This document shows, piece after piece, positions 5,392-27,268 of a stretch of DNA of 64,000 nucleotides (the first letter of the stretch is position 1; each line of letters opens with the position of its first letter). Source of the stretch: Octopus vulgaris (lineage: Eukaryota); contig OX597825.1 in NCBI GenBank assembly GCA_951406725.2, positions 23,498,001-23,562,000 on the forward strand. The letters are read 5' to 3'. Made by a program: the position numbers and the translations under genes. A model generated the notes under the pieces. The model saw only the letters and a program-made list of their open reading frames with translations. It searched no databases and had not been told where the DNA came from.

Positions 5392-5685
5392 AACTATGTG
5401 TGTATGTAAGATATTACTTTTATAATACTTTTTGAAAGACATAAATGCCATTTACCTGAAATTCCTCTCACTTGGAATAAAAAGAAGATTTGAGTCTCAT
5501 TTCAACAAAACATTACTGTATGCTATTGTAGCTTTCACATCTTGCTTTAACGTCTCTTACTATCCAACACCAATTACTTGATTTCCTTACGACGCTCCAC
5601 TGTTAACAACAACAAGAACAACAAAAAAAAACATGTAAATGTGTTGCGTGTTGTATTTCATTTTATTATTTTTATTTTTTAGCAG

Positions 5686-6217
5686 GTGACCAATTATGCA
5701 AATGCACAGTTACTGCAACCGCTTGCAAAGCGTGTTAATGCACCAAAATATGAAGAATTGGCAGACATGTCTAGAACTACAAAATATTTACCAGTATCCT
5801 TTTCTGGAGTGAAACCATCGTGCTCTTCAAAGTCACTACCTAAATCTCCTAGTATAGGACCTAGACAATTATGGGCTGTTCCTGCAACCATCAAATCACC
5901 ATCTCAAAACATTTACCCAAAATCTCTAACAGTTCCAGCTAAAACTCTGCAGATGCCAGGACCCATGCCTACTTTCTCCTTATCTTCTTCTTCGATGGAT
6001 AAACTGAAAAAAGTTTCAGTACCTATAACTGTAGCAACCACTCCCAAACTCTCTTCCATGGCAGATGAAGAACATTTCCAAATTCAAGCACCATCACAGC
6101 AATTGGTCACATTCTGTTCTTCGCCTAGTATGAAAAATCTTCAAAAGCAGAAAATGACTTCACCTTTGCAACCAACTTTAGAAAATGTTCAACAAACTTC
6201 AACCCCTAATGAAATTG
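5686..6217 (+). CDS. Internal coding exon (A) of + strand gene; S/P/T-rich disordered region, candidate SIX6OS1/C14orf39-like protein
   Basis: Poly-T tract plus tandem TAGCAG acceptor (5680-5685); 177 open codons VTNYANAQLLQ...QQTSTPNEI; donor G|GTAAAA at 6218, phase 1. Upstream exons were not identified in this window. Confidence 0.85.
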
Positions 6218-6289
6218 GTAAAAATTATATTTACTTATTCAATGTTTATTTTTTCTTAAATTTTTCCCTAAATTTTTCATAAATTTGTA

Positions 6290-6480
6290 TGCACAGGAGT
6301 GGCTGTGTGGTAAGTAGCTTGCTTATGAACCACATGGTTCCGGGTTCAGTCCCAATGTGTGGCACCTTGGGCAAGTGTCTTCTACTATAGCCTCGAGCCA
6401 ACCAAAGCCTTATGAGTGGATTTGGTAGACGGAAACTGAAAGAAACCCATCGTATGTATACATATATGTGTGTGTGTGTG
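6290..6480 (+). mobile_element. SINE family A, 5' half
   Basis: GGAGTGGCTGTGTGGTAAGTAGCTTGC...GGCACCTTGGGCAAGTGTCTTC... Confidence 0.8.
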
Positions 6481-7509
6481 TGCCAGCATGGAAAGAGGAC
6501 GTTAAACGATGCTGCTGATGATGATGATGATATACACATGCATATGTATGCATGTATGTGTGTGTGTGTGTGCATGTGTTACTGATTATTGAGTGATAAT
6601 TGTAAATGAGTTGTCATGGCAGTGGTGTCCTTCATTTCCAATCTTTCGTGAAAATCTGTCTGACCATAAGGAAATGTTACCTTATGTGACAAGAAGGGCA
6701 CCCAGCTGTAGAAAATCCATCTCAACAAATTTAGTCCAACTCATGTGAGCATTTAGTTGTGGACATTAAAATGCTCCTCCTCATCCTCATCCTCCCCCTC
6801 TTCCTCCTCCTCCACTTCTCTCTCATCCTCCTCCTTGAAACTGCATACTTACGACCGGGAGTCCGGTGCCCTAACCACTGGGCCATTGTGCCTCCACTGC
6901 TGTTGTTGCTGCAGCTGCTAATGTTGTTGATTATGCTTATGCATTTATGTATGTATATATGCATGTGTGATTGAGAAATTTGCCTCTCAACCAAATGGTT
7001 GCAGGTTCAGTCCTGCTCGGTGGCACCTTGAGCATGTGTCTTCTACTATAGCCCTAAACTGAACATAGCCTTGAGAGTGGATTTTGTAGAATGAAACTGA
7101 AAGAACATTGTGTATGTTCGTTTGTTTATATTTGCTAGCATTTGTAATTGGTTGTATGAAAGTGAGACAGGTGCTTTTTTTTATGTCAGTTTCTCCTATT
7201 AAGAAATCATTTCTGCACTCCGCCGCTTCATGCCTTCGGAGCTGTGTGGAATAAGTGATACCTGCCTTGAAAAAAAAAACAGATAATGGTAGCATCAGGA
7301 AGGGCTTCCTGCTGTAATACATCTCAACATATTCATCTGACCCATGCAAGCACAGAAAAGTGGATGTTAAATAAAGGCACAATACCCTACATTTATGACT
7401 ACAGACAATTTACTTTTCTATCTTAAATTTTAGTATATTTTCCTTCAGAAGTCTTTGAGTTGATTGATTAAATTTAAAATATTGAATATTTAAACCTATT
7501 TTCAAACAG

Positions 7510-7685
7510 AAGAAACTGCCTTGAGCAAGTCTGAGAACATTAACATCAACCAAGATGCTTTTCAGGAAAGTACCTTTGATTTCAACGAACATCAAAGGAT
7601 GTTGAAAAAGCTTCATTTATCTCCAGGCATGCCTGCTATGTCGCACAGACCAATGTTTCTCCAATCAGATGAAAACCAGAAACAG
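7510..7685 (+). CDS. Internal coding exon (B) of the same + strand gene
   Basis: Acceptor ttttcaaacAG at 7508-7509; phase-1 entry gives EETALSKSENININQDAFQESTFDFNEHQRMLKKLHLSPGMPAMSHRPMFLQSDENQKQ; donor CAG|GTACTA, phase 0. Confidence 0.85.
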
Positions 7686-7794
7686 GTACTAAATAATATT
7701 AATGTGTTTAATATTGATTTTTGTTCGTTTGAAATTAGATTTTTTTTTCCATGTAAGTATGGGTTAGATGAATGCATATTTTTGAAGCATTGTT

Positions 7795-9075
7795 TTGACA
7801 TTCTTTTGCAGACTACCTCAAAGACAAATAACACTGATCTTCTCTTCATGGCTGGTGACTTCAACGGACACGTTGGTCAACAACCAGGTGTTTTCCATGG
7901 TGTACATGATGGCCAGGGAGTTGGTTCCCATATTGAGGTGGGAACAAGGCTTCTGGAATTCTGTGATGCAAATAACTTATAATCTGTAACACCAAGTGAG
8001 ATACATGGTTGCTCTTAAACACAAAGATCTTCCTTGGTGAAGAATGTACCCCTCAGCATAGGTTAGTCATTTGTGACTTCAGACTACAGGCTAGAGGGGT
8101 TCCAAGAAGCAGGCCAGTCTAGAAAAGAAGGATCTGGAAGCTTAAGGATCCTTTTGATTGACAGAAATTATGAGATGTCCAAACTGAAGCATTTAAGGAG
8201 AAGAAGGAGGAGTTACATATATCTAACATGGAAGAAAAGTGGAAGTTCCTATGGGACAAGTTGCTGAGAGCCACAGACCAAATTTGTGGCAGGTGCAAAG
8301 TCCCAACAAGGTGATGTTGGTGACAGGGCCATTAGAGCAAAGAAACAGGCATGGAAGGACTGGAAGGGTGGCGGTAGCAAAGAACTATATCAGGTAGCTA
8401 GAACGGAAGCTAAGAGATGGTTACACTTAGCCAGAGGAGAAGCAGAAAGGAAGAAGTTTGCCAATGTTTTGAAGAGTGAGGACCCGCAGTTTGAAATACT
8501 TTGGTTTGCACGACAGTGTCTCAGCGGAAATTGTGATGTTGTAGGAAAGACGTGTGTTCGTCTGGATGATAGTTCACTTGCTATTAGTGATTCTACAAAG
8601 AAAGAGGCTTGGAAGTGTCATTATGAAAGGCTGCTAAATGTAGGGAACACATAATGCCTGTGTTCAAACAGCTATGTCGCATGGCAGTGAAACATGAGCT
8701 GCAACTGCAGAGGACATGTGAAGGCTTGAAAGAAATGAAGCCAGCATGCTCCACTGGGTGTGCAATGTCAGTGTGCACATGCGACAGAGTGTAAGCTTCT
8801 TATGAGAAAAATTGGCTATATAGGGGCATCAGATGTAGTGTGCAGAAGAGGAAATTGTACTGGTATGGTCATATGATGTGTATGGACAAGGACAGCTGCA
8901 TAAAGGAGTGCTGACCTCTAAATGTAGAAGGAAACTGTAAAAGAGGTAGATCCAAGAAGACATGGGACGAGGCGGTGATCTTTGGATGTTGAGTCTCATT
9001 GAAGCGATGACAGGTGACAGGGACTTCTGGTTAATTGCTGTGCGTGAGAAGACACGTCAAGCTGAGTGAAATCAT
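7795..9075 (+). mobile_element. Decayed RTE-clade LINE fragment
   Basis: APE endonuclease motif MAGDFNGHVG...GTRLLEFCDANNL, then AIRAKKQAWKDWK...EAWKCHYERLLNV; C-terminal WYGHM...GRSKKTW-like residues; multiple deletions and stops. Confidence 0.8.
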
Positions 9076-10116
9076 AGTTGTGACACATGAAGGGAACCTG
9101 TGCCAGTGACATAAACACATTTTATGGAATGATGATGTGGAAGTAAGACATGGGTTTTGTTTGGTCCATTGCTGGGATTTAAGTAACAAAAAAGAAAATT
9201 TTGTCCTGTAAATTTTTAACCATTCCCACACTGAGTCTATGTATGTGTGTAAGAAAAAACCTATTCATTAACAGAAAAGTATGCTATTAAACTTGCTTGG
9301 GGCCAGGGTGGGGAGAAAGAAATGAAGAAGGTACCAAGTGGTTGTGGGGTGTGCTTAAAACTATAGCTAAATGTCCCACGCAACGAAAAGTTTCAGAACA
9401 TAAAAATAAGAAATAAGTGGAAATTTTACCAGTGAGTGTGTTAAATTATAAGGCACAAAAAGAAAATGACTCTCCCCAGACACAATAGAATATGCTTCAA
9501 CACACGAACTCACATAAAGAATCTTGCAAACCAAATCCAAAAACGAAATATTTCAGTCTGAAAATATTTTCAAAACTTTTTTTTTTTTATCAAAAATATT
9601 TTCCCTTTGTTTTGAGGTGCATTGTCCAAAAAAAAAATGGCCAAAAGCAGTCTGGAATGTGGGTGGGTGGGGGAAAAAAAGATAAATTTTCCAGAATTTT
9701 TTTTTTCCATTAAAATTTTATTGAAATGGCCTATATAAGTTCAATACCTACTACAAATGTGCCAGAACTCACATACCTGTGGCTTGTACTTTTGAATTTA
9801 GCTAGATCTGAAAATACATGAAACACTTCCACTAGCATCACAAATTTGATTATTTGTTGCCTGCAACAAAATAGGCATTACATAAATATTTAAAAGATTA
9901 GGAAGATGATTGAGTGAAACAATTTGCATCAAGATAGAAAAGAATGGTACAATCAGGGAAGAATTGGAAGTGCATTGTGACCAGCAATTTATAACAACAT
10001 CTGATAGTCTGGTCAGTACAGTGATACAGTGATATAATATAATACTGGGGTTTTAACAGTGAAATATTTATCTCCTGGACATAAGTAAAATGGTTGAATA
10101 GCATATTTATATTTTA

Positions 10117-10505
10117 CTAGCAGTATAGTCTAGCGTTGCTCGGGTATGTTTTCTTTTCGACCCTTTAGAATTGGAATTTTTGAAAAGTAAAAATTTTGCA
10201 TTATCTAGTTTGTTATTCTCTTTAAGTGAACATTTTTCTGGCTGAAATACACTGAAAAATGGTGACACAGCAGTAAAAAAATCGTAAAAAAATAGGGATT
10301 TTTATTAAAAGAAAAGCACCTTTTTGATGTAAATAATTTTTGGTCTTAACATGGTCCGATTTCTTCTATGGAACGAAGAGCAAGCCTTCTTTTATCATAC
10401 TCTCAGTTTTGGTCAACTTGCGCAGCAGGGTCTCGGAGGAGATAGTGTTAATTGAAGGCTACCAAACCTACCACACACAGACAACTTCAGCTTTATATAT
10501 ATAGA
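10117..10505 (-). mobile_element. Non-autonomous Helitron
   Basis: On the - strand: A|TCTATATATATAAAG 5' end, degenerate subterminal hairpin and CTAG|T 3' end; no TSD. Confidence 0.7.
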
Positions 10506-10934
10506 TTAGTTTTGGTATGGTAAGTAAGGCTAAGGTAACCTAATACTGGTAAAGCAAACTTTAAGAGAAACATTCTGTTAAGGGCAAACCAATGATTCAA
10601 CAGTAAAACCATAGTCCGGGCTATCTAACTCAGAAGATCTTTTGAATTAAAAATAATATATGCTGATTACATATGGAAATAAAAGATACCTGAATTGTTA
10701 GGTTTGTTAATCAGTGAAGATCTTTTGGGTTAGTTAAGTATGTTCATTTATTGCACTGGTCTCTTAAGTTAAAATCTTGTTTCAAATTGTAGAGTTATCA
10801 GTTTAAATATTTCTTTTGTACAGATGGCAATTCTTATTTAGTTAATTATATGTATTTTAAATGGTAAACAAATATTGATCAGAACTAATTTTGAAGCCTA
10901 TATTATTGTAATTCTATTGATACTCTCAATGAGT

Positions 10935-11317
10935 GGAGGTGCAATGGCCCAGTGGTTAGGGCAGCGGACTCGCGGTCGCAGGATCGCGGTTTCGATTCCC
11001 AGACCGGGCGTTGTGAGTGTTTATTGAGCGAAAACACCTAAAAGCTCCACGAGGCTCCGGCAGGGATGGTGGTGATCCCTGCTGTACTCTTTCACCACAA
11101 CTTTCTCTAACTCTTACTTCCTGTTTCTGTTGTGCCTGTATTTCAAAGGGCCGGCCTTGTCACTCTCTGTGTCACGCTGAATATCCCCGAGAACTACGTT
11201 AAGGGTACACGTGTCTGTGGAGTGCTCAGCCACTTACACGTTAATTTCACGAGCAGGCTGTTCCATTGATTCGGATCAACCGGAACCCTTGTCGTCGTAA
11301 CCGATGGAGTGCTTCCA
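10935..11317 (+). mobile_element. tRNA-derived SINE family C (tail variant 1)
   Basis: A box TGGCCCAGTGG, B box GTTTCGATTCC; TSD ACTCTCAATGAGT/ACTCTCAGTGAAT. Confidence 0.85.
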
Positions 11318-12025
11318 ACTCTCAGTGAATTATAACTACGATGTTTTGTACCGAATTTTACATATGTTGGTATTGTGCAATATGAAATATTACTCAATAA
11401 CATTTCAAATTTTCAATTTTCGATCATAGGGAAATGTAAAAATAAAATAAATTAAAAGGAAGAGATGGAACTTAAGTTTGTCAGTTTCCAGTTTTTCAAA
11501 TTATTTAAAAAGTTTTATAATTTGTTTCAAAGAATAAAGAATTGTTATTTATTTTCTCTACAGATACATATGGATACTACCATATTTTATAACTGGAAAT
11601 TTAATTCGGATTTGTATAGAAGATGAAATATTGAAACATACCAATATGTTCTTGAATTAATTTTACTCAGGAATGTTTAAAATGAAAACAAAAAATAAAA
11701 AAAAGGAATAACTTGTCAAATATATTATTTAAACATTGAATATTCCATAGGAATAGCTTTAATATATACACATGTCTGGGAAGTAATATATTAAAGAATA
11801 TCTTATGATAGATGTAGAAGACGACTAACTCCAGAATAACACATCGGATGAATGTTTACATTCAACCCATTTATATATTCTTTAGAGAACCATGAGCACT
11901 TCCATTGCCATAGTTTTATATCTGCTTTCCATAATGGCATAGGCTGGTTTGTTTGACAGGATATGATGAGGAGTGGGGATGCGTCTGGCATTGATGTCTC
12001 AGTTTTGGCATGGTATCTTAGGATA

Positions 12026-12257
12026 AGGCGGCGAGCTGACAGAAACGTTAGCACGACGGGCGAAATGCTTAGCGACATTTCGTCTGCTGTTATATTCTGA
12101 GTTCAAATTCCGCTGCGGTCGATTTTGTCTTTTGTCCTTTCCGGGTCAATTAAATAAGTACCAGTTACGCACTGGGGTCGATATAATTGATTTAATCCGT
12201 TTGACTGTCCTTGTTTGTCCTCTCTGTGTTTAGCCCCTTGTGGGCAGTAAAGAAATA
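12026..12257 (+). mobile_element. SINE family B monomer (~230 bp)
   Basis: GGCGGCGAGCTG.CAGAAACGTTAGC...GAGTTCAAATTCC (B box)...GTCGA..TTG.CTTT..TCCTTTC.GGGTC...AAAGAAATA. Similar monomers at 22555-22787, 26490-26715, 30010-30238 and 57387-57632(-). Confidence 0.85.
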
Positions 12258-12883
12258 GGTATCTATGGATGAAAACTTTTTTTAATGCTAGCTGCCTTCC
12301 AGAGTGTTCTGGTTGCCTTTTTCTTTTGTGGTTTCAGTACCAGTGAGGTCACCTTATAACTTGAAAGACTTAAATATTCCAAAGCGTGGTTTTCTGAAAT
12401 AATAAATTCTTTGATTGTATTTGTATGCATGACTACATATAGCAAATCACAGTTACTAATTTAAGGATGTCCAGAACATGTGAACGTGTGTTGTGATTTT
12501 CCAAATCTGCAAGACACTGGTCACTCAACATAGCATTACAGAGCATTCTAAAATATTGCACACTATTAATGATAGTGTATATTTTCTTTGTAAATTTTTC
12601 AAACTCAAAATATTATTTTCTTCTCTAGGCACAAGGCCTGAAGTTTTTGGGGAGCGGGGCAATCGATTAGATCGACTTCAATACGCAACTGGTACTTGAT
12701 TTATCGACCCCCTGAAAGGATGAAAGGCAAAGTTGACTTTAGTGGAATTTGAACTCAGAATGTAAAGACAGATGAAATGCTGCTAAGCTTTTGTCTAGCG
12801 TGCTAACATTTCTGCCAGCTCACCACCTTGGCATTCCAATATATTACATACTATTAATAATGGTGCCTGTAGGTGCATTGTAA

Positions 12884-13248
12884 TCTCTCTATATATAAAC
12901 GGCAGAATGTCTGTGTGCGTGTCCTTTATACAAATCCACAGTTTTTCAGTTAGAGGGCTCGCATTTTCTATGGTCATTCAAAACCGTCCAAGGGTGGTTG
13001 TGCACATCTTTACATTTCCCCAGTCACCCCGCAAAGCCATTAAAAAAGTCAATAGAAGTGACTTTTTTGTGAATTTTCTATCCAAAACCCAATCAAAATG
13101 CCCAAAACTTGATACGCTAATTGAATGCCAGCTAGCTGTATGTGATTGGTCGGAGATTTGGACAGTACTTGCTTGTATGTGCGCATGCACGCAGCTGTAT
13201 ATGCATGCATTAGCACTATGACCCGGCAACGCCGGGTCATAGTGCTAG
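12884..13248 (+). mobile_element. Non-autonomous Helitron
   Basis: A|TCTCTCTATATATAAA start; perfect hairpin GCACTATGACCCGGC-aac-GCCGGGTCATAGTGC ending in CTAG|T. Confidence 0.8.
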
Positions 13249-13607
13249 TATTATATAAAAAGTGAAGTGTATATTTTCTTTGTAAACTTTTCAAACTCAA
13301 AATATTACAATATATTATAAAAATAGTGGGGCATCAGCATGGTTGCAGCTCTGAGCTGAAACTACAGAAAAAAAAAAAATATATATGATAGCATAAAAGA
13401 TGCATGGACATAGATGCACCCCATCTATAGTGGTGCATATTCAGGAAAAAACAAAAAAAGTGTATTTAGTGCATTAAGGTATGTAATTTAGGTACAAATT
13501 TGCATAAAGGAACTAGGGTGGCTCTTTGAGACATTTTTTTTTTTTTTAAAGAATATGAACTTTTTTTTATGCCATCAAAAATCGTACATTGATTCCTTCT
13601 GTTGCAG

Positions 13608-13673
13608 AAACCCGAAGCATCTAAAGCCACAGCAGATTCCAATTTCTTTCTTCAGTCATTTTTCGACAAACAG
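13608..13673 (+). CDS. Internal 66-nt coding exon (C) of the same + strand gene
   Basis: Acceptor ttccttctgttgcAG; phase 0 KPEASKATADSNFFLQSFFDKQ; donor CAG|GTTTGT, phase 0. Confidence 0.75.
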
Positions 13674-13799
13674 GTTTGTGGAATTTTAGTTTATTTGCTA
13701 CATGTGATTTAATATGTTGTATGTTTATCTTTGAAATATTTTTATAAATATCGTCCAAGAGTTCAAAATATTGACTACGATAATGAGTTCAAACTAGTA

Positions 13800-14312
13800 C
13801 CGTAAATCCTCGAGTATAATCTGCATTTTTTCCCCCAAAATTTAAATGTCAAAATCCCTAGTGCGTTCTATATACGAGGTTGAAAATGAAAAATATTTTC
13901 TAAGCAATGTCCGAGTCTCTATTTGCTGTCCGGCAATCTTTATTCAGACGCATTTTGTGATGTCGAACGCGAAAATACCTTAAGCTAAGCCTGAAAGCAA
14001 TGAAGTCATAAAAGAATCATTCATAACTTGCAGTAAGCAACATATATTAAATGTTATTACTGTTATTTCTTTCTTTTCTGCAAACAAAATGCACAAAAAA
14101 GCTACACATTTGCATTATGTTATATGTACAATAATAATAAAGGACATTACTGTATACTGTTTTACAAACCAAGGACGTTATATAGACCTCCTTGTCTCAA
14201 ATTAGAGAAGGCATGCATATTATACACAAGGTTTAGGTTTTTCAGAGGTACAGCCCCCTAAAAATCCCCTGCGTATTATATTTAAGGGCGGACTATACTT
14301 GAGGATTTATGG
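13800..14312. mobile_element. MITE, Tc1/mariner-superfamily (Tc2/pogo-like), copy 1
   Basis: TIR CCGTAAATCCTCGAGTATA with TA target duplication on both sides; homologous to 39493-39970 in the opposite orientation. Confidence 0.85.
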
Positions 14313-14408
14313 TATTCACAAATTGCATTGTTTGCTTCTCATAGCAAATTTCCAGCTAAATTATCATTTGAAAACAGATTCCATTCTTTGTTTAGTGACT
14401 AACATAAT

Positions 14409-14600
14409 TGTATTTGATAGCATAAACGACACACGGGTATATTAGACACACCCCAATTTTAGTAATGTATATTTAGGAAAAAATAGTTTTTCATGTATTA
14501 AAGCTTATGGGAGGTTCAATTTTACATATAGGTCTAGATGTGATTATTTGATTATTAGTTTTTTCTTGAAGAAATTTGTGTTCTGTGCTATCAAATACAG
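14409..14600. mobile_element. Old small MITE (related degenerate copy at ~13380-13576)
   Basis: TIR TGTATTTGATAGCA ... TGCTATCAAATACAG followed by TA; body similar to 13380-13576. Confidence 0.5.
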
Positions 14601-15421
14601 TAAGGAAAATTTCCACACTTTGTAAAAAAAATGAGGTCTTTGAACAATTTATCTAAATATTTAAAGTGCCAGTGACATGTAAAAACCACCTGCTATACTC
14701 TCAGAGTGGTCGGCATTAGGAAGGGCATCCAGCCATAGAAACCTTAATAAATCAGATTGGAACTGGGTCCAGTCCCCTGGCTTACTAGTTTTTCAGTCAA
14801 ACCGTCCAACCCATGCCAACATGGAAAGCGGATGTTAAATGATGATGATGATGATGATGATGATGAAGAAGAGCTACTCAGCCCTTGGTTTTGTTTTCCT
14901 TTCTTTTCTACATGTTGTCTTGCCTATTCCAATGAATGCCATCCAGTGGAATTTTAACATCTGATGATAATTTCTCAAGCTGGGAAAACAAAATTCATGT
15001 AATACTTGCTGGGACAAGGGTGGTTTATGGAAAGATACTATTCCAGATTAAAATTTTGTAAGAGTTATTGCTTTATTTTACAATTTATTTCTAATATCGA
15101 ATGTCAGAGATTATATTAAAATAGTTCTGTTTGGTTATTCTAGCATCAGATGTTTTCACAGGGGAATTAATTGAAAGTAGTTTTTTTCATTGTATTATCT
15201 AAAGAAAGCAATGACAAACCATTTTGAGATACTAAACTAGCTCACAGTTTAACCTTTTCTTTACTGTATTTAGTTTGAGATGCTCTGTGTTTCTGTCGAT
15301 TAATTTTAAATATAACAAAGAATTTAGTAAAATAACTCAGTTATCATTAAGCTGGTGTTAGGAGCATAAATTGTGACTAAGGTTTGGTGGAGGATTTTAA
15401 TTCAAAACTTACGTAAAGTAT

Positions 15422-16035
15422 TAGGAGTGGCTGTGTGGTAAGTAGCTTGCTTATGAACCACATAGTTCCGGGTTCAGTCCCACTGTGTGGCACTTTGGGC
15501 AAGTGTCTTCTACTATAGCCTCGGGCTGACCAAAGCCTTGTGAGTGGATTTGATAGACGGAAATTGGAAGACGCCTGTCGTATATATGTATGTATGTATA
15601 TATATATATATATATATATATACATACATACATATATTTGCCTAATATTTGATTTGCCTAATAGTGGTTTAATCTCTAATTTAATATAATATATATATAT
15701 TTATACTATAAAATTAGATTTAATCCTAAATCTAATTTTTCCCTGTAAGTTTGGATTTACTCCCTAATATTTACTCCCTAATATTATTATTATATATATA
15801 TATATATGTGTGTGTGTGTATATGTTTGTATGTCTGTGTTTGTCCCCCCAACATCGCTTGACAACCGATGCTGGTGTGTTTATGTCCCCGTAATGTAGCA
15901 GTTTGGCAAAAGAGATCGATAGAATAAGTACTAGGCTTACAAAGAATAAGTCCTGGGGTTGATTTGTTCGACTAAAGGCAGTGCTCCAGCATGGCCACAG
16001 TCAAATGACTGAAACGAGTAAAAGAGTAAAGAGTA
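15422..16035 (+). mobile_element. SINE family A, full length, with an AT-rich insert in the central (TA)n
   Basis: Complete head and GACTGAAACGAGTAAAAGAG tail; extra ~150 bp at 15640-15790. Confidence 0.85.
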
Positions 16036-16228
16036 AACAAAACAGAGGTAGTTTTGGCCGAGTTGGTATCAAAAGAGTTAAGATATCAAGTGGTAAAAAA
16101 ATCATTGCTATTTCTGAAAGATTTCAAGAGCAGATAACATGAGAAGTTGACTACATGTACTTTAAAAAGTAAGTCTCACAAATTTGAATTGGCAATGTGA
16201 TGAATTATTTACTGTTTAATAATTAGAG

Positions 16229-16600
16229 ATCATCATCATCATCATCGTCATCATCGTTTAACATCCTTTTTTTCCATACTGGCATGACTTGGACGGTTTG
16301 ACTGGGGACTGGCAAGCTAGGAGGCCGCACCAAGCTCCAATCTGATCTGGCAATGTTTCTACAGCTGGATGCCCTTCCTAATCCCAAGCACTCCGAGAGT
16401 GTAGTGGGTGCTTTTTACGTGCCACCGGTACGGGAGCCGTTTAGGTGGCACTGGCATTATCCACGATCGGAGGGTGCTTTTTACATGTCACTGGCACAGG
16501 AGCCAGTTGGGGCAGAGGGGCTGGCATTGATCATGTGCTGATGGTGCTTTTTATGTGCCACCGGCACAGGAGCCGGTCGGGGTGGTGGAGTGGTTCTGGC
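16229..16600 (-). mobile_element. RTE-type LINE 3' UTR with (GAT)n tail
   Basis: Reverse-complement of the same 3' end, with three internal GGTGCTTTTTA(C/T)..CACCGG repeats. Confidence 0.65.
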
Positions 16601-16699
16601 ATCGATTGCTATATATATATAAAGATATTAGCTCCCGTTTACCCACCCCACAAATAGAAAACCCACATAATTAAAAATGTATAATTTCCCTATACACAC

Positions 16700-16739
<40 letters not shown>

Positions 16740-16989
16740 AATTGAATAATGGTAACTTATTAATTTACAGATAAATTTCCTCTATTTACATAATATTGAG
16801 GTCTCTTTCTTTTGTTATCTTACCGATGATGATGATGATGATATACATATTGAAGGCAGTATATTCAAATACGCCCACATACATTAGTGACAGCAAATTA
16901 CAGAAAGACACCCATAGACAAATGCATATATTTAGCTATAATAGATTTACATTTAGATTTGCACCTACACAATTTTAGGAAATTCTTAT

Positions 16990-17780
16990 TATCATCATTC
17001 TAATAGTCCTATTGTTAATGTCTTCTCACACTAGATAACTCATCACGAATCTGTGTATTTAGAATGTGTGTTGTGTTGTGTTTTCTGAAATTGTATTTAG
17101 AGTATTGGACATGTGCACAATGTTTAGTACTGCTGTTGTCTGTATGTTGTTATGTGTTGACGTAGGTACTGGTGATTTGGATATATAATTGTCTATACTT
17201 CATTTTATTATCTCCTCAAGTCATCTATCACTATTATGAAGATTGCATCGCTTTTACATTCTGGATATGTTTATTTCCAAATCTTACCGAAAATGGTTAG
17301 TTTTCCCATTTCTTTCAGAGAGATACTCTTGGCTGCTGGAATTAATGTGTTAAAAGACATTTTGTCTGATGTTCTTGGGCAATAATACATTTGATGATTT
17401 GCCACAAAACACCCACTCTCTGTAAACTAGCACATTTCAGAGTATATTATGAGAACTTTTGGGGGTTTTCCATAATGTAGGTTGCATTTGCTTCTGGTAT
17501 TTGAACATTCTGACTCTATTGTATTTGTTCATTATATTCTGTTTTGAGTAGCCAGGATATGATGTGATTATTTCTTCCTCCATCTATGTTGCTACTATCT
17601 TTTGCATGGTTCTAATGGAATGGTTTTAGTCTTGTGCCACGATCAGCATGGCACAATTGTGGGCACAGTTTCAACATGATTATTCTTTTATTTGATTTTA
17701 TTGAGCCTTATCTAGATATTGGTCAAGAAAGGTTCTTTGTTTTTTTGCCAGTGTTCTAGTATGACATTTTAATCATTCTC
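16990..17780 (-). mobile_element. Very decayed Penelope-like (GIY-YIG C-terminal) remnants
   Basis: - strand residues WRKK.NHIISWLLK, RSKCNL, NSSTKHCA and LNT..RDELSS..RH resemble PLE endonuclease C-terminal motifs; heavily frameshifted. Confidence 0.35.
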
Positions 17781-17934
17781 TAATCATCTGTTTTTCTTAA
17801 TTTTTGTTGTTGCTTCACTATCTCCCCACCCCCTGCAACTGTTTGACATCCTGTCTGTTTCGTATCTGTTGCTTTCACTACAAGATAGAATTAAGTTTTC
17901 TTTTATTGACGTTTTGAAGAAATCTTTGAACTAA

Positions 17935-18280
17935 TAATAAGCATGCCCAGCTGACAATAAGGTATGCGATAAGGAAGAAAAAAAAGTCTATAGATATGAC
18001 AGGTTAGCTTGGGAGGTTAAGTAGTTGTGGTCAATGAAAACGGTGGTAGTAGTACCAATAACAGTGAGTAAAATTCTTGAGAAGTATATGGAATTAATAG
18101 GGGCTGCAATAAGGGTGGAGCACTCGCAGAAAACAGCACTGCTTGGAACAGCTCAAATACTCCGGATGGTGCTCAAAAAATAAAGGGTGTTACCTTAGTT
18201 CACTGGTAGTGAACAGCTGGCACCGTAGTACATCTCCAGTGTTAGAAGCTGTACAAAAACAATAAATAATAATAATAATA
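17935..18280 (+). mobile_element. R4/Dong-like (restriction-like endonuclease) LINE 3' end
   Basis: LAWEVK.LWSMKTVVVVP...EHSQKTALLGTAQILRMVLKK* followed by a short UTR and (AAT)n tail. Confidence 0.7.
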
Positions 18281-18494
18281 CTTTCTACTATAGGCACGAG
18301 GCCTAAAATTTTGGGGGAGATTGCTAGTCAATTACATTGGCTCCAGTGTTTGACTGGTACTTATGTTTTTGACCCTGAAAGGACGAAAGGTAATGTAGAC
18401 TTTGGTGGAATTTGAACTCAGAACATAAAGATGGATGAAGTGCCGCTAAGCACTTGGTCTCACATGCTAATGATTCTGCCAATTCACTGCCGTT

Positions 18495-18862
18495 TTCTTT
18501 TATTCTTTTACTTGTTTCAGTCGTTTGACTGTGGCCATGCTGGAGCACCACCTTCAGTTCAACAAATCGACCCCAGGACTTATTCTTTGTAAGCCTAGTA
18601 CATATTCTATCAGTCTCTTTTGCCGAACCGCTAAGTTACGGGTATGTAAACAGACCAGCATTGGTTGTCAAGTGATGTTGGGGGGACAAACACACACACA
18701 CATACAACGGGCTTCTTTCAGTTTCCGTCTACCAAATCCACTCAAGGCTTTGGTCGGCCCAAGGCTATAGTGGAAGACACTTGCCCAAGGTGCTACGCAG
18801 TGGGACTGAACCCGGAACCATGTGGTTGGTAAGCAAGCTACTTACCACAAAGCCGCTCCTAC
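18495..18862 (-). mobile_element. SINE family A
   Basis: Reverse-complement match to the 24366-24750 copy. Confidence 0.85.
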
Positions 18863-19283
18863 ACAATGATAATACCAAAAATAATAATGGTTTCAAATTT
18901 TGGCACAAGTTTTGAAGGGAGGGGGAAGTCGACTACATTAACACCAGTTTGCAACTGAAATTTATTTTATTGACCCCCAAAAGAGTGAAAGGCAAAGTTG
19001 ACTTCTGTGGGGTTTGAACTCAGAGTGCAAAGAGCCAGAAGTTTTGCCACTGAGCATTTTGTCCAATGTATTAACGATTCTGTTAGCCATGTCACTTTAA
19101 TACTCCTTTCGACTATGGGTACAAGGCCTGAAATTTTGTGGCAAGCGGGATAATCAATTACATCAACTCCAGTGCTTAACTGGTACTTACTGTATGGACA
19201 GGGTGAAAGGCAAAGTCAACCTTGGCAGAACTTGGAAGTGGACAAAATGCTAATGATTCTACCAGCTTGTTGCTTTCACCACC

Positions 19284-19337
<54 letters not shown>

Positions 19338-19339
19338 TA

Positions 19340-19848
19340 ACTGATTGGAAGTGTTATCATGTACATTGTTTTGTCTTGGTATAAAAGTTGGGCTACAGCA
19401 AATATTCTGCTCAATACCACAGATTTGCTTGTCAGTTGTTTGACCTTAACCAGTTGAGCATGTCCCTTAGTGGCTGACGATATGTGCATCTCTGATCACG
19501 AGCAGAAGTAGTGGGGGAGCATCATAGCCATGTGTTGAGAGGGATTCTTTGGGGTTTGAATAATTCACCTCTGGAAACATGGATGGTTCTTTCAACATCC
19601 TTAAACAACCCTTATTCAGGGATTGTTTGAGCGTGATGGGCTACTCAACCTGAAGAAAATTCTAACTGGGCCCCACCTGCAAGGTCATGTGCTGTTTATC
19701 TTGATATGAGATCACCATGTCGCACACATATGGTTGTGATGCATGTGCCTGGTGTGCCCTTATCAGACGGGTGGTCATGATGGGTATATTGGGCTTCGTA
19801 TATTTTACCCCAGTGTCACTTTGATGGCATGAACTGCTCTCTCACTCA
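19340..19848. mobile_element. Unclassified ~510-bp element embedded in (AAT)n; probable 3' end of a (TAA)n-targeting retroelement
   Basis: Complex sequence with higher GC than its flanks, bounded on both sides by (AAT)n; no ORF. Confidence 0.4.
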
Positions 19849-20108
19849 ATAATAATAATAATAATAATAATAATCATGATGATGATGACGATGACGATGA
19901 CGACCACCACCACCACTATCGTTTAATGTCTGCTTTCCATGCTAGCATGGGTTGGATGGTTCGACCGGGGTCTGGGAAGCAAGGAGGCTGCACCAGGCCC
20001 AGTCTGATCTGGCAGTGTTTCCTAACGCCAGCCACTCCGTGAAGGGCATCCAGCTATAGAAACACTGCCAGATCAGACTGGGCCTGGTGCAGCAATAATA
20101 ATAATAAC

Positions 20109-20149
<41 letters not shown>

Positions 20150-20159
20150 TAATAATAAT

Positions 20160-20620
20160 AGATTCATAGACAACTGATTTCAAAGCATTGAACTAAAAGC
20201 CGAATGGAACATCAAATTTTAGTTGTGCAGGATTACTGCCAAAACCATAAATATCTATAAAGATGAAATGATAAAGGAAGAAGCTAATGTCAAGAGGAAA
20301 TTGTATAATTAGTTAAATGAGACGACATGGCTACGTCATTTCTGTTTCCTAATTGTTGCAAAGTGTGAGTAAGTTGGCAGACACAATCCAGTCAGCAGTG
20401 GTGTGTATTGGGCAAGATATTGAAGGTTCGGTGTGAAGTGGTATGAACATGTACCTGATATGGTAGTGCATGACAACCACCTATTCTACAGTCATCTGGG
20501 ACATTTTTGTCGAGTCTGTCAAGGAAATCAAAGCAAACTTCTAGATATAAGAGATCAAAGACATCGTTTTTATTGGATTATTTCTTGAAGCTTAGGTTGG
20601 CAAAGTTTCTCTCCGGGATT
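20160..20620 (+). mobile_element. Highly decayed REL-type LINE fragment next to (AAT)n
   Basis: Residual RHNPV...VYW...KWYEHVPDMVV motif typical of the region upstream of the REL domain. Confidence 0.45.
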
Positions 20621-21004
20621 AACATCAGAAGCAGTTTTTATTATAATCTTTAACATCATTACCATCATCATCATCATCATCATTGTTATTGTTATTATTA
20701 TTATTACTGTTATTTACTTTTAACCTGCATGTTTGCTACAATGATTTGCCGAAACACACCCAGCATCCTAGGGTGGGTTAAGGATAAGAAATGTTAGAGT
20801 ATGACTGAAAGCTTGAGGAGGGGAAGTGGCTGAGGCAGTAGCGAAATATCTTCTTGTAATACAACACAGACATTTGAATTGATAGGGTTTTTCTAAGGAT
20901 GTGAGCAGTACTTGTCAGCACAATCATTTGGATTTCTCTGAATCATGGTGCTCCTGGGATGTTATCTAGATGTTTTTGACATCCCCCCTTTTTTTATCAT
21001 ACCT

Positions 21005-22169
21005 AGGGCATCCCATTGCATGATAGTTCCACCTCTCATATGAGAATCCCTTCAGAGTCATCTGAAAATTTAAAGCAGGCTCACCTTTTAATTATTGATG
21101 AAGCATCAATGTTATCATGCAGTGCTCTGAGAGCCATTGATCTGCTGCTGAGGCAAATTATGAATTTTCCCAGACCATTCAGTGGAAAAGTGCTGCTACT
21201 TGGTAGGGACTTCAGACAAACTGCACCTGTCATCCCAAGAGGATCCAATGCAGGAGTAATCGAGTCCTCAATTAAGCAATCTCCACTCTGGCATTTCATA
21301 ACAAAACTCAGTTTGCCAGAAAATATGTGAATGGCTGGACAAGATGACTTCAACAGGTGACTCTTAGAGGTTGGAAATGGAACTCTCCCCAACAATGAAG
21401 AGCTGAAAGAAAACCTCATAGAAATTCCCCAAAATATGGTATCTACAAATAACAATGCTAGAGAGGTTTTTGGGGAAGAATTATTGCTAGACAATGATGA
21501 AGCAGTTGAAAGAGTGTCATCGACAATCATTGTGACACCCAAAAATAAAGATTGTCTTCACATAAACACTGACATAATGTCATTATTGCCTGGTGAGAGG
21601 CAACAGTCTGCAGAAGCATTGACTCCATTCTTGAAGAAAATAACGAAGCTGTTATACATTATCCGGCAGAGTGTTTAAATTCACTGACACCTTCTGGGAT
21701 GCCACCTCATATACTGACCTTGAAGAGGCATTCGATAGTCATGTTGCTAAGGAACCTGAACCCAATGAGAGGTTTATTCAATGGGACCTGGATCTGAGTA
21801 CTGTCCATCAAGGATTTTGTCATTCATGAAAAATACTTAGTGGAAGTAAGAAAGAAGAGGCCTTTATTCTGTGCTTCAACCTCCATCCCACTGAGACAAA
21901 CCTTCCCTTTAGTATGAGTAGATGACAGTTTTCCGTTACCCTAGCATTTGCAATGTCTATAAACAACTCAGAAGGGCAGAGCCTTAATAATGTTGGCATC
22001 ATCCTACCATCACCAGTGTTCAGCCATGGAGAACTCTGTGTTGCATTGAGTAGAAGTAGAAGCAGAAATCATATTAAACTGTTTGGTAAAGGACCATCCA
22101 AAACAAGGTGAACTCATTGGTGGTGGGCTTTGCACTAGAAACGTGGTGTTGAAACAGTTATTAAGATAA
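21005..22169 (+). pseudogene. Decayed PIF1-family helicase fragment (Helitron RepHel-type)
   Basis: Motifs LLIIDEASML, GKVLLLGRDFRQTAPV, GMPPHILTLK...VMLLRNLNPMRGLFNGT, FPVTLAFAMSINNSEGQSL, PVFSHGELCVALSR, TRNVVLKQLL; interrupted by stops and frameshifts. Confidence 0.85.
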
Positions 22170-22459
22170 AGGTTTTTAATCTTTTCATTTTATTTTCCGT
22201 ATAATTTTCATGGTAATAACAACAACAATAATTAATTTTCAGTATCATCTTTCAATTCTGTTTCCATTTCTTGTCGAGTGTCTTCCTGACACCTAGGGCA
22301 GAGAAAGTCACTGTATACATTGGTAGGCCATTAAAATAAACACACCAGATTGTTCATTTACATAATCATGTGATAGAGAAAGAGGGGCAGAAAGACAGAG
22401 ACAAAGGAAAAAAAACAAAAAAAGTAAACAAATAAATTAAAGGAGAAAAAAGAAAGAAA

Positions 22460-23050
22460 AGTCACAGTGACAATGCTCTTCTCAGTACATGTGATGTACT
22501 TGTTCAGACAATCTTTTGCACTTTCTGCATGGATGGTATGCCATGGTATGCATAAGGTGGCGAGCTGGCAGAAATGTTAGCACGTCGGGCGAAATGCTTA
22601 GCGGTATTTCGTCTGCCATTACGTTGTGAGTTCAAATTCCACCGAGGTCAACTTTGCCTCTCATCCTTTCGGGGTCGATAAATTAAGTACCAGTTACGCA
22701 CTGAAGTCGATGTAATTGGACTTAATACCTATGTCTGTTCTTGTTTGTCCCCTCTGTGTTTAGCCCTTTGTGGGTAATAAAGAAATAGGTATGCCAAGGG
22801 ATTATTCTTAAATAATTTTCACTTCCTTTTTTTGATCATTCCAAGTGCTCTTACAATCACTGGTATTTTAACTGTCTTGAGATGCCACATATTTTCAATT
22901 TTGATTAGTAAATCTTTATATTTTCTGAGCTTACCAAATTCTTTTGCCAAGATATTATGGTCACAGGGTATGCTCATGTCAATCAATAAACAGACTTTAT
23001 TGTTTTGGTCTTTCACAACAATGTCTGGTTTATTTGCTTTGATGGTCCAG
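22460..23050 (-). mobile_element. R4/Dong-like REL-endonuclease LINE fragment (SINE inserted at ~22555-22787)
   Basis: ANKPDIVVKDQNNKVCLLIDMSIPCDHNILAKEFGKLRKYKDLLIKIENMWHLKTVKIPVIVRALGMIKK: PD-(D/E)xK REL motif with KxxKY. Confidence 0.8.
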
Positions 23051-23139
23051 TCTGCACATAATGGAGGGTCCCAAAGAATTGTTACATTTTGTTATTATGA
23101 TCATCATTATCATTATCATTATAATTATTATTATTAAAA

Positions 23140-23770
23140 TAGTGAGCTGGCAGAATTTTTACTGTGCCAGATTAGTGCTTTGTGGCATTTATTCCATCTT
23201 TATGCTCTGAGTTCCAGTTCCACCAAAGTTGACTTTTATTGACTTTTTGGAGTTAATAGAATACGTATCAGTTGGCGTATTGAGGGTAGCGAGCTGGCAG
23301 AAACGTTAGCACGCCGGGCGAAATGCTTAGCGGTATTTCGTCTGTCTTTACGTTCTGAGTTCAAATTCCGCCGAGGTCAACTTTGCCTGTCATCTTTTCA
23401 GGGTCGATAAATTAAGTACCAGTTACGCACTGGGGATCGATGTAATCGACTTAATCCGTGTGTCTGTCCTTGTTTGTCCCCTCTGTGTTTAGCCCCTTGT
23501 GGGTAGTAAAGAAATAGGTATTTCGTCTGTCTTTACATTCTGAGTTCAAATTCCGCTGAGGTCGACTTTGCCTGTCATCTTTTCGGGGTCGATAAATTAA
23601 GTACCAGTTACGCACTGGGGTCAATGTAATCGACTTAATCCTTTTGTCTGTCCCTGTTTGTCCCCTCTCTGTTTAGCCCCTTGTGGGCAATAAAGAAATA
23701 AGAATACGTATCGGATTGATGTAATAAACTTGTCCCTCTCCCAAAATTGCTGGCCTTGTGCAACAATTTG
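23140..23770 (+). mobile_element. Old family-B SINE with a young family-B dimer nested inside
   Basis: Dimer ~23284-23700 flanked by an AGAATACGTATC duplication; dimer junction AAAGAAATA|GGTATTTCGTCTG. Confidence 0.8.
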
Positions 23771-23830
23771 ACATCATTCTTACTACCACTGCTGCTGCTG
23801 CTACTACTACTACTACTACTTCAATTACAG

Positions 23831-23933
23831 GATCAGAATGCAGAATCATTTGGAACATCAATGTTTTCACAATCAAAAGAAGACAATAATACCGATGGAC
23901 AAGGCATTTTCTCTGGTTTCTCACAATTGTCAG
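23831..23933 (+). CDS. Internal coding exon (D) of the same + strand gene
   Basis: Acceptor caattacAG; phase 0 DQNAESFGTSMFSQSKEDNNTDGQGIFSGFSQLS; strong donor CAG|GTAAGA, phase 1. Confidence 0.85.
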
Positions 23934-24128
23934 GTAAGATAGATGATGTGTGTGTGTGTGTGTGTGTGTGCATGCGAGATTGTGTATGCATGCACACATG
24001 TATGTGTGTATTTATTTATTTATGTATGTATGTTTGTACGAACGTATATATATATGTATGTATGTATATGTATGTTTGTATGTATGTATATATATATGTA
24101 TGTTAGTAAGTATGTATGTATGTATGTG

Positions 24129-24175
<47 letters not shown>

Positions 24176-24365
24176 TATGTTTGTATGTATGTATGTATGC
24201 ATGAAGCTAAGGCTGCACTTAAGAATGAGGACGGTTTACTGAGAAGTAGACATTGGATCTTGGTGCAGCCGTCTGGCTTGTCAGTTCAAGTCAAATTGTC
24301 AAAACAATGCCAGCATGGAGGAATGGAGGAGGTTACATGCTAATAATGAATATTATATATATATA

Positions 24366-24750
24366 GGCGTAGGAGTGGCTGTGTGGTAAGTAGCTTGCTT
24401 ACCAACCACATGGTTCTGGGTTCAGTCCCACTGCATGGCACCTTGGGCAAGTGTCTTCTACTATAGCCTTGGGCTGACCAAAGCCTTTTGAGTGGATTTG
24501 GTAGACGGAAACTGAAAGAAGCCCGTCGTATATATGTGTATGTTTGTGTGTTGTGTTTGTCCCCCCCCCCCAACATCGCTTGACAACCAATGCTGGTGTG
24601 TTTACATCCCCGTAACTTAGCGGTTCGGCAAAAGAGACCGATAGAATAAGTACTAGGCTTACAAAGAATAAGTCCTGGAATCGATTTGCTCGACTAAAAG
24701 GCGGTGCTCCAGCATGGCCACAGTCACATGACTGAAACAAGTAAAAGAGT
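24366..24750 (+). mobile_element. SINE family A, full length
   Basis: Head GGCGTAGGAGTGGCTGTGTGG, central (TG)n, tail GACTGAAACAAGTAAAAGAG. Confidence 0.9.
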
Positions 24751-24847
24751 ATATGTGTGTGTGTGTGTACATTTTTCTGTGAAGGTTTTTTTTTTTGGTA
24801 AGCAGCATTGATTTTTACAATCTGTAAAAAAATAATTATGGCATTTT

Positions 24848-25053
24848 ATAAGGTTCAAGCTTACAAGCAATCACTGTGCAATGACTAACGAAAATAGTCT
24901 AATAAGGGGGCATGTAAGCCCTTGACAGAAAAAAGTAGGTTTTCCTGTACACATACAAAATCCTACTTTTCTCTGTCAAGGGCTTATATGCCCCCTTATT
25001 AGACTATTTTCGCTAGTCATTGCATGATGATCGCTTTTAAGCTTTAAACTTAT
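24848..25053. repeat. ~200-bp imperfect palindrome (foldback/MITE-like)
   Basis: Arms of ~95 nt, e.g. AAAATAGTCTAATAAGGGGGCAT / ATGCCCCCTTATTAGACTATTTT, with a short loop. Confidence 0.85.
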
Positions 25054-25060
25054 GTGATAT

Positions 25061-25109
<49 letters not shown>

Positions 25110-25119
25110 ACATATATTT

Positions 25120-25275
25120 TGCTTCTTTTAGTCATTAGACTGTGGCAATGCTGGAGCACAGCCTTAAAGAACTGGACTTAGGTGTTTAAGCCTGCTACTT
25201 CTCTCAGTGTCTTTTGCCAAACTGTTAAGTTATGGGGACATAAACAAAGCAACACCAGTTGTTAACAGTGGTGGA

Positions 25276-25347
<72 letters not shown>

Positions 25348-25535
25348 ACACATGCACACACACACATACACACGTGTGCACACATGTATACACAATGGGC
25401 TTCTTTCAGTTTCCGTCTGCCAAATCCACTCACAAGGTTCTGGTCTGTCCAAGACTATAGTAACAGACACTTGCCCATGGTGCCACACAGTAGGACTGAA
25501 CCTAGAACCATATCTCCGAGAAGCAAGCTTCTTCT
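25120..25535 (-). mobile_element. SINE family A (older copy)
   Basis: Reverse-complement match with expanded (CA)n. Confidence 0.8.
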
Positions 25536-25582
25536 ATACACACACACACTTATATAGGCATATATATATATATGTATATACA

Positions 25583-25996
25583 AGCGTAGGAATGGCTGTG
25601 TGGTAAGTAGCTTGCTAATGACCCACATGGTTCTGAGTTCAGTACCACTGTGTGACACCTTGGTCAAGTTTCTTCTACTATAGCCTTGGGCCGACCAAAA
25701 CCTTGTGAGTGGATTTGGTAGACGGAAACTGAAAGAAGCCCATCATATATATATATATATATATATATGTGCATGTGTGTGTGTATATGTTTGTGTGTCT
25801 GTGTTTGTCCCCCCCAACATCGCTTGACAACCAATGCTGGTGTGTTTACATCCCCATAACTTAGTAGTTTGGCAAAAGAGACCAATAGAATAAGTTCTAG
25901 GCTTACAAAGAATAAGTCTTGGGGTCGATTTGCTCAACTAAAGGGGATGCTCCAGTATAGTCACAGTCAAATGACTAAAAGAGTAAAGAGTAAAAG
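25583..25996 (+). mobile_element. SINE family A, full length
   Basis: Complete head and tail. Confidence 0.85.
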
Positions 25997-26252
25997 GGAT
26001 ATATGTATGTATATGTATGTGTTTTCATGTGTGTGTATGTGTGTGTGTGCATGCTTGGTTTTCTTTAACCACTTGGCATTTTAAACCAGCCATATCCGGC
26101 CCAAAATTTTCTACCTGTTTTATGTTCAAACTGGGCAGATCTGGCCTCTCACACCTACCCAACAATGTCTTTGTAAAAATATATTGTTACGTCATTGAAA
26201 TGCATGATCATTTGAAGTCAATGTGAATATATAAGCTTTACATTTGACAAAG

Positions 26253-26830
26253 TGAAGGTGCATGGCTCAGTGGTTAGAGCGTCGAGCTTACGATCGCGAG
26301 GTTGCGAGCTCGAATCCGGGACCGGGCTGCGTGTTGTGTTCTTGAGCAAGACACTTTATTTCACGTTGCTCCAGTTAACTCAGCTGTAGAAATGAGTTGC
26401 GACGTCACAGTTGCCAAGCTGTATCGGCCCCTTTGCTTTTCCCTTGGATAACACTGGTGGCATGGAGAGGAGAGGCAGGTATGCATGGGCGAGCTGGCAG
26501 AAACGTTAACGCGCCGGGCAAAATGCTTAGCGGTATCTCGTCTGTCGTTACGTTCTGAGTTCAAATTCTGCCGAGGTAGACTTTGCCTTTCATCCTTTTG
26601 GGGTCGATAAATAAAGTACCAGTTACGCACTGGGGACGATGTAATCGGCTTAATACCTATGTCTGTCCTTGTTCGTCCCCTCTATGTTTAGCCCCTTGTG
26701 GGTAATAAAGAAATAGGTATGCATGGGCGACTGCAGGTCTTCCATGAATCCACCTTGCCCAGACTTGTGACTAGGAGGGTAACTTTCTAGGTGCAATCCC
26801 CTAGTCAGTGTCGTGACCAAATTGGGTCCC
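26253..26830 (+). mobile_element. SINE family D with nested family-B SINE
   Basis: Nested copy flanked by a 16-bp duplication AGGTATGCATGGGCGA (26477-92 / 26715-30). Confidence 0.85.
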
Positions 26831-27059
26831 GACATTTGGTAAACTAATGTGAATGCTGAGGGGTTAAGGTCTACTTTCCATTGAATTCAACTCAAGCCAT
26901 CGACTAACAAGAACACAGTGACAAATTTCATTTTACTAATCCTATGATTTTGAGCAACATATCATAGTATTCAAAGTACAAGTGTCTTCTATGTTAACAA
27001 TTAACTCTTCTTCTTTACTCTCTCTCTCTTTTTTTTTTCCCCCACCTCTCCAACCAAAG

Positions 27060-27268
27060 CTACTGAAGTGGATGCACCAGTAGAATTCAGATTCTCCAAT
27101 TCTAATGAAGATGTGGCACCAAACCAAACCGGAGGCAACTTTTTCTCTTTTGGTGCTGACAGTTTCACCTCGTCGAACGATCAAGATTCCAGAAATAATT
27201 TCTCTTTTGATTTTTCAGTTTCTTCCAGCTTAGAGTCTGCCAACAACCCGCCGTTTTCATTGTTTTAA
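27060..27268 (+). CDS. Terminal coding exon (E) with Phe-cluster C-terminus
   Basis: Long polypyrimidine tract 27001-27050 and AAG acceptor; phase-1 entry ATEVDAPVEFRF...NFFSFGADSF...NNFSFDFSVSSSLESANNPPFSLF-TAA. The five exons total 1086 nt = 361 aa + stop. Confidence 0.85.

Follow-up and report, generated by a model that had tools for sequence, protein, structure and literature searches.

What kind of protein ends in the five exons, rich in phenylalanine clusters, that lie in a window of 64,000 nucleotides of the Octopus vulgaris assembly (G000:C12:23498001-23562000, the whole stretch analysed here)? A preliminary description of this DNA, made from its letters alone, had proposed a homologue of SIX6OS1 (also named C14orf39), a fertility protein of the synaptonemal-complex central element that helps to hold paired chromosomes together in meiosis. 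The analysis reported here leads to the conclusion that the window very probably contains the 3′ half of a 13-exon SIX6OS1 homologue, likely encoding a synaptonemal-complex central-element protein with the same role as in vertebrates; as to the homology taken by itself, we have little doubt. Statements on published work refer to those passages of the cited papers that were available.

Gene structure and homology to SIX6OS1

The exon structure proposed in the preliminary description was reproduced (Table 1): all five exons are preceded by AG acceptors, the first four are followed by GT donors, the joints have phases 1, 0, 0 and 1, and the joined 1086 nt encode 361 amino acids plus a stop codon with zero internal stops, the two alternative frames holding 14 and 25 stops. 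The motifs listed for the product (TSTP, LSPG, NFFLQSFF, GIFSGF, EFRF, NFFSFG, NFSFDF and the PPFSLF end) were all located in its translation, as were the 11 phenylalanines among the final 69 residues. When the first exon of the window served as a protein query, three Octopus records were retrieved, P0001, P0002 and P0003 (89-99% identity), and the same five exons are present in the independent models of two Octopus species, P0002 and P0003, with 83-100% amino acid identity per exon. All three records are named hypothetical or uncharacterized, the uninformative annotation that had been anticipated, and some relatives bear wrong names, such as tensin-1-like and staphylocoagulase-like.

The mapping of upstream exons, carried out within 200 kb taken 5′ of the window, added eight coding exons and revealed a 13-exon gene encoding 654 amino acids and spanning ~190 kb (C12:23335772 to 23525268), with AG/GT at all 12 introns. 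The 361 residues encoded in the window constitute the C-terminal 55% of this protein, and 650 of the 654 residues equal those of P0002 once the repeated exon of P0002 is left aside. These upstream exons had been singled out beforehand as a place to look for an unrelated domain; instead, AlphaFold2, run on a 35-sequence alignment, predicted a long helical domain composed of helices at residues 5-129, 131-166 and 172-218 (predicted local distance difference test, pLDDT, mostly >90 to residue 160). A short helix was placed at residues 493-503, and pLDDT was <50 at 405 of 652 residues. In this model, the N-terminal ~215 residues are predicted to form long helices (5-218) and the remainder to be disordered.

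Profile similarity to S6OS1 had been set as a further check on the proposal, and P0003 matched this Pfam family (PF15676) directly, under its cut-off, with 23.3 bits (E 2.9e-5), as did P0001 with 20.3 bits (E 2.4e-4), both from profile position 1; it was the sole Pfam family found on the N-terminal domain at E<0.001. By themselves, 0/5 window exons match any Pfam family at E<=10, so that the family assignment depends on upstream exons that the preliminary description had not seen. A phmmer search with residues 1-216 of P0003 against 1.84 billion proteins returned 46 matches including the query, and among the other 45, 23 match S6OS1 at E<=0.001 and 16 exceed the cut-off. For example, the limpet protein P0009 (E 5e-26 to the query) reaches 43.1 bits on Pfam S6OS1, and one bivalve relative is labelled Protein SIX6OS1 in UniRef. 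Twenty relatives were looked up, and the 17 that could be named come from a cephalopod, a chiton, bivalves, gastropods, annelids, echinoderms, amphioxus, Nematostella and Hydractinia. When P0009 was compared with the octopus assembly (15 candidates scored), two exons were recovered with weak E values of 0.03 and 7.8, both in the gene under study. Moreover, in ESM Atlas the top three clusters for the whole protein are chordate SIX6OS1 (0.95, 0.94 and 0.93), with 198-210 of 256 features in common. The direct Pfam likeness, the relatives over the cut-off and these language-model features together bear out the proposed homology.

Some observations on the gene models stand apart from this argument. 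The fourth ESM Atlas cluster (0.93) is unnamed and comprises 83 mostly arthropod proteins (676 aa, without a Pfam family); it is a candidate arthropod SIX6OS1 that might form a bridge to Corolla. The 1665-aa record P0010 carries its S6OS1-like domain from residue 801 and is probably two genes fused in a single model. In the octopus gene, the 3′ end of exon 8, its donor and the following intron recur 243 bp downstream in a second copy (L003:6709-6950 and 6952-7193; G000:C12 about 23474709-23475193), which has 96% identity over at least 242 bp and may be longer; the peptide of the copy matches P0003 at 95% versus 86% for P0001. In P0002 the whole 77-aa exon is present twice, which reflects either duplication of the exon or an artefact of assembly. 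Ten residues encoded at L017:1335-1364 match the alternative first exon of P0004, with isoleucine replacing the start methionine, and the P0004-type upstream start may be non-functional in the octopus genome studied.

The phenylalanine-rich tail and a conserved island within it

The composition of the protein changes along its length: residues 216-480 are 39% serine, threonine or proline, and residues 481-654 are acidic, with 13.2% phenylalanine versus 2.3-2.8% in residues 1-215 and 216-480. Ten S/T-P sites were counted, with the full cyclin-dependent kinase consensus in none of them; the last 120 residues include four FxF motifs, the terminus reads FSLF, and one weak match to an LIR (LC3-interacting region)-like motif falls within the last 180 residues. 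For the comparison of tails, 34 of the 45 matches were used, after the exclusion of one cephalopod and of ten records that were short or truncated. At least eight phenylalanines are found in the last 100 residues of 28 of these 34 relatives, and 24 have an F-x-L/F-F-like ending. A tail profile built without cephalopods assigned 20.4 bits to the octopus tail, while 500 shuffles reached at most 2.3, and F541, encoded by exon 11, has a counterpart in all 29 of the relatives aligned. Because the relatives had been picked via the N-terminus only, the shared phenylalanine tail is independent support for the family assignment.

The best alignment between the octopus and Nematostella proteins comprises residues 487-546, outside the helices. 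An island of ~35 residues in exon 10, the second exon of the window, presents F-x-hydrophobic, a short helix, SPG and RPMF across relatives, SPG being conserved in 25-26 of 29 and M517 and F518 in 24 of 29. An island profile built without octopus gave 26.1 bits for the octopus island, a score attained by 0/500 shuffles, and in a leave-one-out analysis 23 of 24 members outscored all 50 of their own shuffles. The island alignment had omitted five tail-bearing matches, four of them for apparent absence of the island; when these five were scored later, P0010 obtained 49.6 bits and P0034 a weak 9.8, and P0031, P0033 and P0044 proved to be without it. The island is clear in 24 of the 29 tail-bearing relatives. 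Its mean identity of 30.8%, a value biased upward by member selection, compares with 27.5% for the helical domain and 11.5% for the linker (residues 216-485, 24 relatives).

In the vertebrate SIX6OS1 tail, conserved patches and four S/T-P sites have been described (PMC5095591), and these patches may include the island, of which no description was found in the available passages of the literature on SIX6OS1 C-terminal motifs and interactions. Judging from its sequence, the helix-SPG-RPMF island is a putative docking site for one folded partner, which would be switched by phosphorylation at the Ser-Pro. A more far-reaching proposal is that the island, which slowly evolving invertebrate SIX6OS1 proteins reveal to be retained between cnidarians and octopus, with an amphipathic helix and a degree of conservation similar to that of the folded domain, constitutes an undescribed phospho-switched docking site of the synaptonemal complex that holds a crossover factor; we regard it as possible, on balance unlikely, and if true, it would give a concrete mutation target in Nematostella or a mollusc.

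Probable meiotic role, rival explanations and known systems

In mammals, residues 1-67 of SIX6OS1 and a second site within residues 1-262 bind SYCE1, and both are required for synapsis (PMC7467691); similarly, the binding of Nematostella SIX6OS1 to SYCE1 was observed in 4/4 two-hybrid assays (PMC13693662; preprint 10.64898/2026.01.18.699972). By analogy with mouse, human and Nematostella, the octopus helical domain would bind SYCE1, and from the resulting heterodimer the central element would start to form between the paired chromosomes. The tail phenylalanines of C. elegans SYP-4 are not needed for synapsis and are needed for ZHP-3 retention, crossover assurance and interference (10.1101/2024.08.05.605830, PMC11833701). 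If SYP-4 is taken as a guide, the octopus phenylalanine clusters may make numerous weak hydrophobic contacts by which the material state of the complex is tuned, and may keep a crossover factor of the RNF212/HEI10/ZHP-3 type on it, thereby controlling crossover number and spacing. Labour would then be divided within the protein, with the helices serving assembly, the phenylalanine tail crossover control and the island docking. Among five central-element proteins set against mouse TEX11, TEX12 was reported to bind it (PMC8763056). In the octopus genome, four collinear exons matching Cor1 (PF04803) at G000:C7:116197943-116203786 are a probable SYCP3 gene, and a zf-RING_5 search gave 18 RING matches, among which RNF212 or HEI10 was not singled out.

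Several results weigh against a SIX6OS1 homologue in its vertebrate role, and they bear on both the family and the function. As regards the family, the octopus proteins score 20.3 and 23.3 bits, below the Pfam S6OS1 cut-off of 27, and P0002 has no S6OS1 match at E<=1; the ESM Atlas score is 0.80, a lead, for the N-terminal piece alone; and no vertebrate sequence was returned by the word-index protein searches, which gave cephalopods only (3, 3 and 4 matches), or stood among the 17 named of 20 clusters. The gene could accordingly encode an invertebrate coiled-coil protein that has a low-complexity tail and no relation to SIX6OS1, the weak S6OS1 score being due to coiled-coil composition, and the stray matches to many families that are typical of coiled coils do occur here, while solved structures yielded three chance sequence matches (E 0.2-0.9) and Foldseek none. 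Against this reading, in alignment A1 S6OS1 was matched by 24 of 35 members versus 1-2 of 35 for the stray families, no other family exceeding two. A 16-member profile gave 173.7 bits for the octopus domain, -6.1 for its reverse, at most -2.0 for 200 shuffles and at most 7.9 for 200 heptad-preserving shuffles; this test is partly circular because the members were found using the octopus query, although their S6OS1 status comes from Pfam. Together with the relatives over the Pfam cut-off, the Atlas score of the whole protein and a phenylalanine tail that fits the descriptions of SIX6OS1, these results make an unrelated coiled-coil protein next to negligible as an explanation. The family search of the octopus assembly with S6OS1, made by an insensitive exon-by-exon procedure, was blank, and such blanks are uninformative because this search missed the octopus gene itself.

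As regards the function, the homologue could have drifted in its role, being SYCE1-independent, or dispensable for synapsis and mainly concerned with crossover spacing. A search of the octopus assembly for the SYCE1 family, with the same insensitive exon-by-exon procedure, was blank and leaves the partner unproven in octopus; the octopus Pfam score is lower than those of most molluscan relatives; and in Nematostella the synaptonemal-complex proteins are conserved while the mutants depart from vertebrate phenotypes (PMC13693662), so that the octopus function need not copy that of mouse. However, residues 1-70, the SYCE1-binding part in mammals (PMC7467691), align with no internal gaps across molluscs, an annelid, deuterostomes and cnidarians, SYCE1-SIX6OS1 binding is retained in Nematostella, and the published SYCE1 alignment includes lophotrochozoans (PMC13693662, fig. 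S3); we give a drifted role a slim chance and favour a central-element protein acting as in vertebrates. A further rival concerns the end of the protein, since the main product of the locus could end, as in P0001, on the small exon at 53224-53256, with the phenylalanine-tail exon unused. P0001 is modelled in this way, a pyrimidine tract and AG precede the small exon, and the contigs of the sequencing runs (without tissue labels), four of which were compared with exon 13, did not show the exon 12-13 joint directly. Exon 13, in contrast, is used by both P0002 and P0003, shares 91% identity with P0003, the 11 phenylalanines all being retained, and provides a tail of the kind shared by most relatives; on the tail profile the P0001 end scores 3.0 bits versus the 20.4 of the octopus phenylalanine tail. 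A contig of run X6 covers exon 13, with ten listed differences that change five residues and no phenylalanine, and starts at 27058, the merge point of spliced and unspliced forms, a weak hint from one contig whose RNA status is guessed. This is the one run of four in which exon 13 is covered, the three blank runs carrying no weight, and part of exon 9 is present in 11 runs, their RNA status being likewise guessed. A main protein ending on the small exon is very improbable; this exon is probably a gene-model error and possibly a minor isoform, and the locus with its phenylalanine tail corrects the deposited model P0001, whose end drops that tail.

Vertebrate SIX6OS1 resembles the octopus protein in its helical N-terminus, in the long disordered remainder with S/T-P sites and in its C-terminal FxF clusters, and the octopus architecture is consistent with the accounts of SIX6OS1 in PMC5095591, PMC7467691 and PMC11753403. 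The two are also of similar length (654 aa versus 574-587 aa in vertebrates; PMC5095591). The Pfam matches of the invertebrate set mostly span the first 110-320 profile positions. Unlike its vertebrate counterpart, the octopus gene is not beside a Six gene: linkage to Six genes was rejected, since C11 carries all three SIX1_SD matches and C12 the gene. Nematostella P0040, which may be the published Nematostella SIX6OS1 (PMC13693662), obtains 127 bits with the N-terminal profile, and it has the island and the phenylalanine tail in common with octopus. Binding to SYCE1 was demonstrated in two-hybrid assays for that published protein and is putative for the octopus one. C. elegans SYP-4, Drosophila Corolla and Arabidopsis SCEP3, which likewise combine a coiled coil with a disordered phenylalanine-rich region, have been called likely SIX6OS1 orthologues on grounds of architecture and motifs (PMC11753403, PMC12602556, PMC12711579, PMC12283363). 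The last 174 residues of the octopus protein contain 13% phenylalanine versus 14% in the SYP-4 C-terminus (PMC11833701), and in SCEP3 the order of coiled coil and disordered region is reversed. The likeness of these three proteins to the octopus one is by architecture only in the present comparison, whereas the octopus protein aligns directly with the S6OS1 profile.

The origin of SIX6OS1 was dated in 2016 to cartilaginous fish (PMC5095591). In 2026, Nematostella SIX6OS1 was reported together with an alignment from various metazoans (PMC13693662, fig. S4), whose figures may already include molluscs, and a Bombyx orthologue was listed (PMC12956816). In the full-text literature, whose coverage excludes most subscription journals, SIX6OS1 was not found mentioned with mollusc, lophotrochozoa or octopus, and a search of the oyster gonad literature gave no paper with C14orf39. 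The octopus gene joins a known family, of which invertebrate copies and the parallel between the phenylalanine tail and SYP-4 have already been published. Together with its relatives, it extends SIX6OS1 to molluscs, annelids, echinoderms and amphioxus, groups in which it was hidden under uninformative or wrong names, and the alignment of these relatives is deep enough for tail conservation to be followed, which bears on how the synaptonemal complex spaces crossovers.

Features of the window and neighbouring repeats

Table 1. Exons and related features of the octopus gene (window positions unless a contig is given).
Feature	Position	Strand	Remarks
Exons 1-8	G000:C12:23335772-23474772		Outside the window, 5′ side; encode residues 1-292, with the predicted S6OS1-like helical domain at residues 5-218
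Coding exon 9 of 13	5683..6217	+	S/T/P-rich, basic, poorly conserved disordered linker
Coding exon 10	7510..7685	+	Splice signals, gene-model comparison
Conserved island within disordered tail	7566..7658	+	F-x-F, predicted helix (P0003 residues 493-503), SPG, RPMF
Coding exon 11	13608..13673	+	Phenylalanine cluster NFFLQSFF
Coding exon 12	23831..23933	+	Splice signals, gene-model comparison
Coding exon 13, last	27060..27268	+	Acidic phenylalanine-rich tail, FxF repeats, FSLF-stop
Ten-codon alternative last exon of P0001	53224..53256	+	Replaces exon 13 in P0001

Exon 9 has a tandem acceptor at 5683/5686: the use of 5683 adds one glutamine, as in P0001 and P0002, and P0003 is without this residue, as expected from 5686, the start given in the preliminary description. 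The DNA around the exons is AT-rich and contains many microsatellites. When 148 open reading frames of the window and of L017-L020 were compared with Pfam, seven matches were obtained, all of mobile-element type. Three of the fragments in the window are PIF1-like helicases, located at 21007-21327 (+), 44990-45352 (-) and 45286-45489 (-), with Pfam E values of 6e-22, 2e-20 and 3e-8; they are probably Helitron remnants, and one of them lies within the intron that separates exon 11 from exon 12. Four short tandem arrays, at 32929-33337, 40406-40892, 54388-54849 and 59618-60038, hold 2.2-2.6 copies each with 91-92% match; the period is 184 bp in three and 163 bp in one, the units appear to be related, and the arrays likely belong to a dispersed repeat family. 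Mobile-element fragments are also present close to the 5′ end of the gene: a frame of 459 aa at L018:5305-6681 contains a GIY-YIG domain of presumably Penelope-like origin, and part of an integrase zinc-binding domain and parts of reverse transcriptases were found at L018:3000-3263 and L017:9045-9867.

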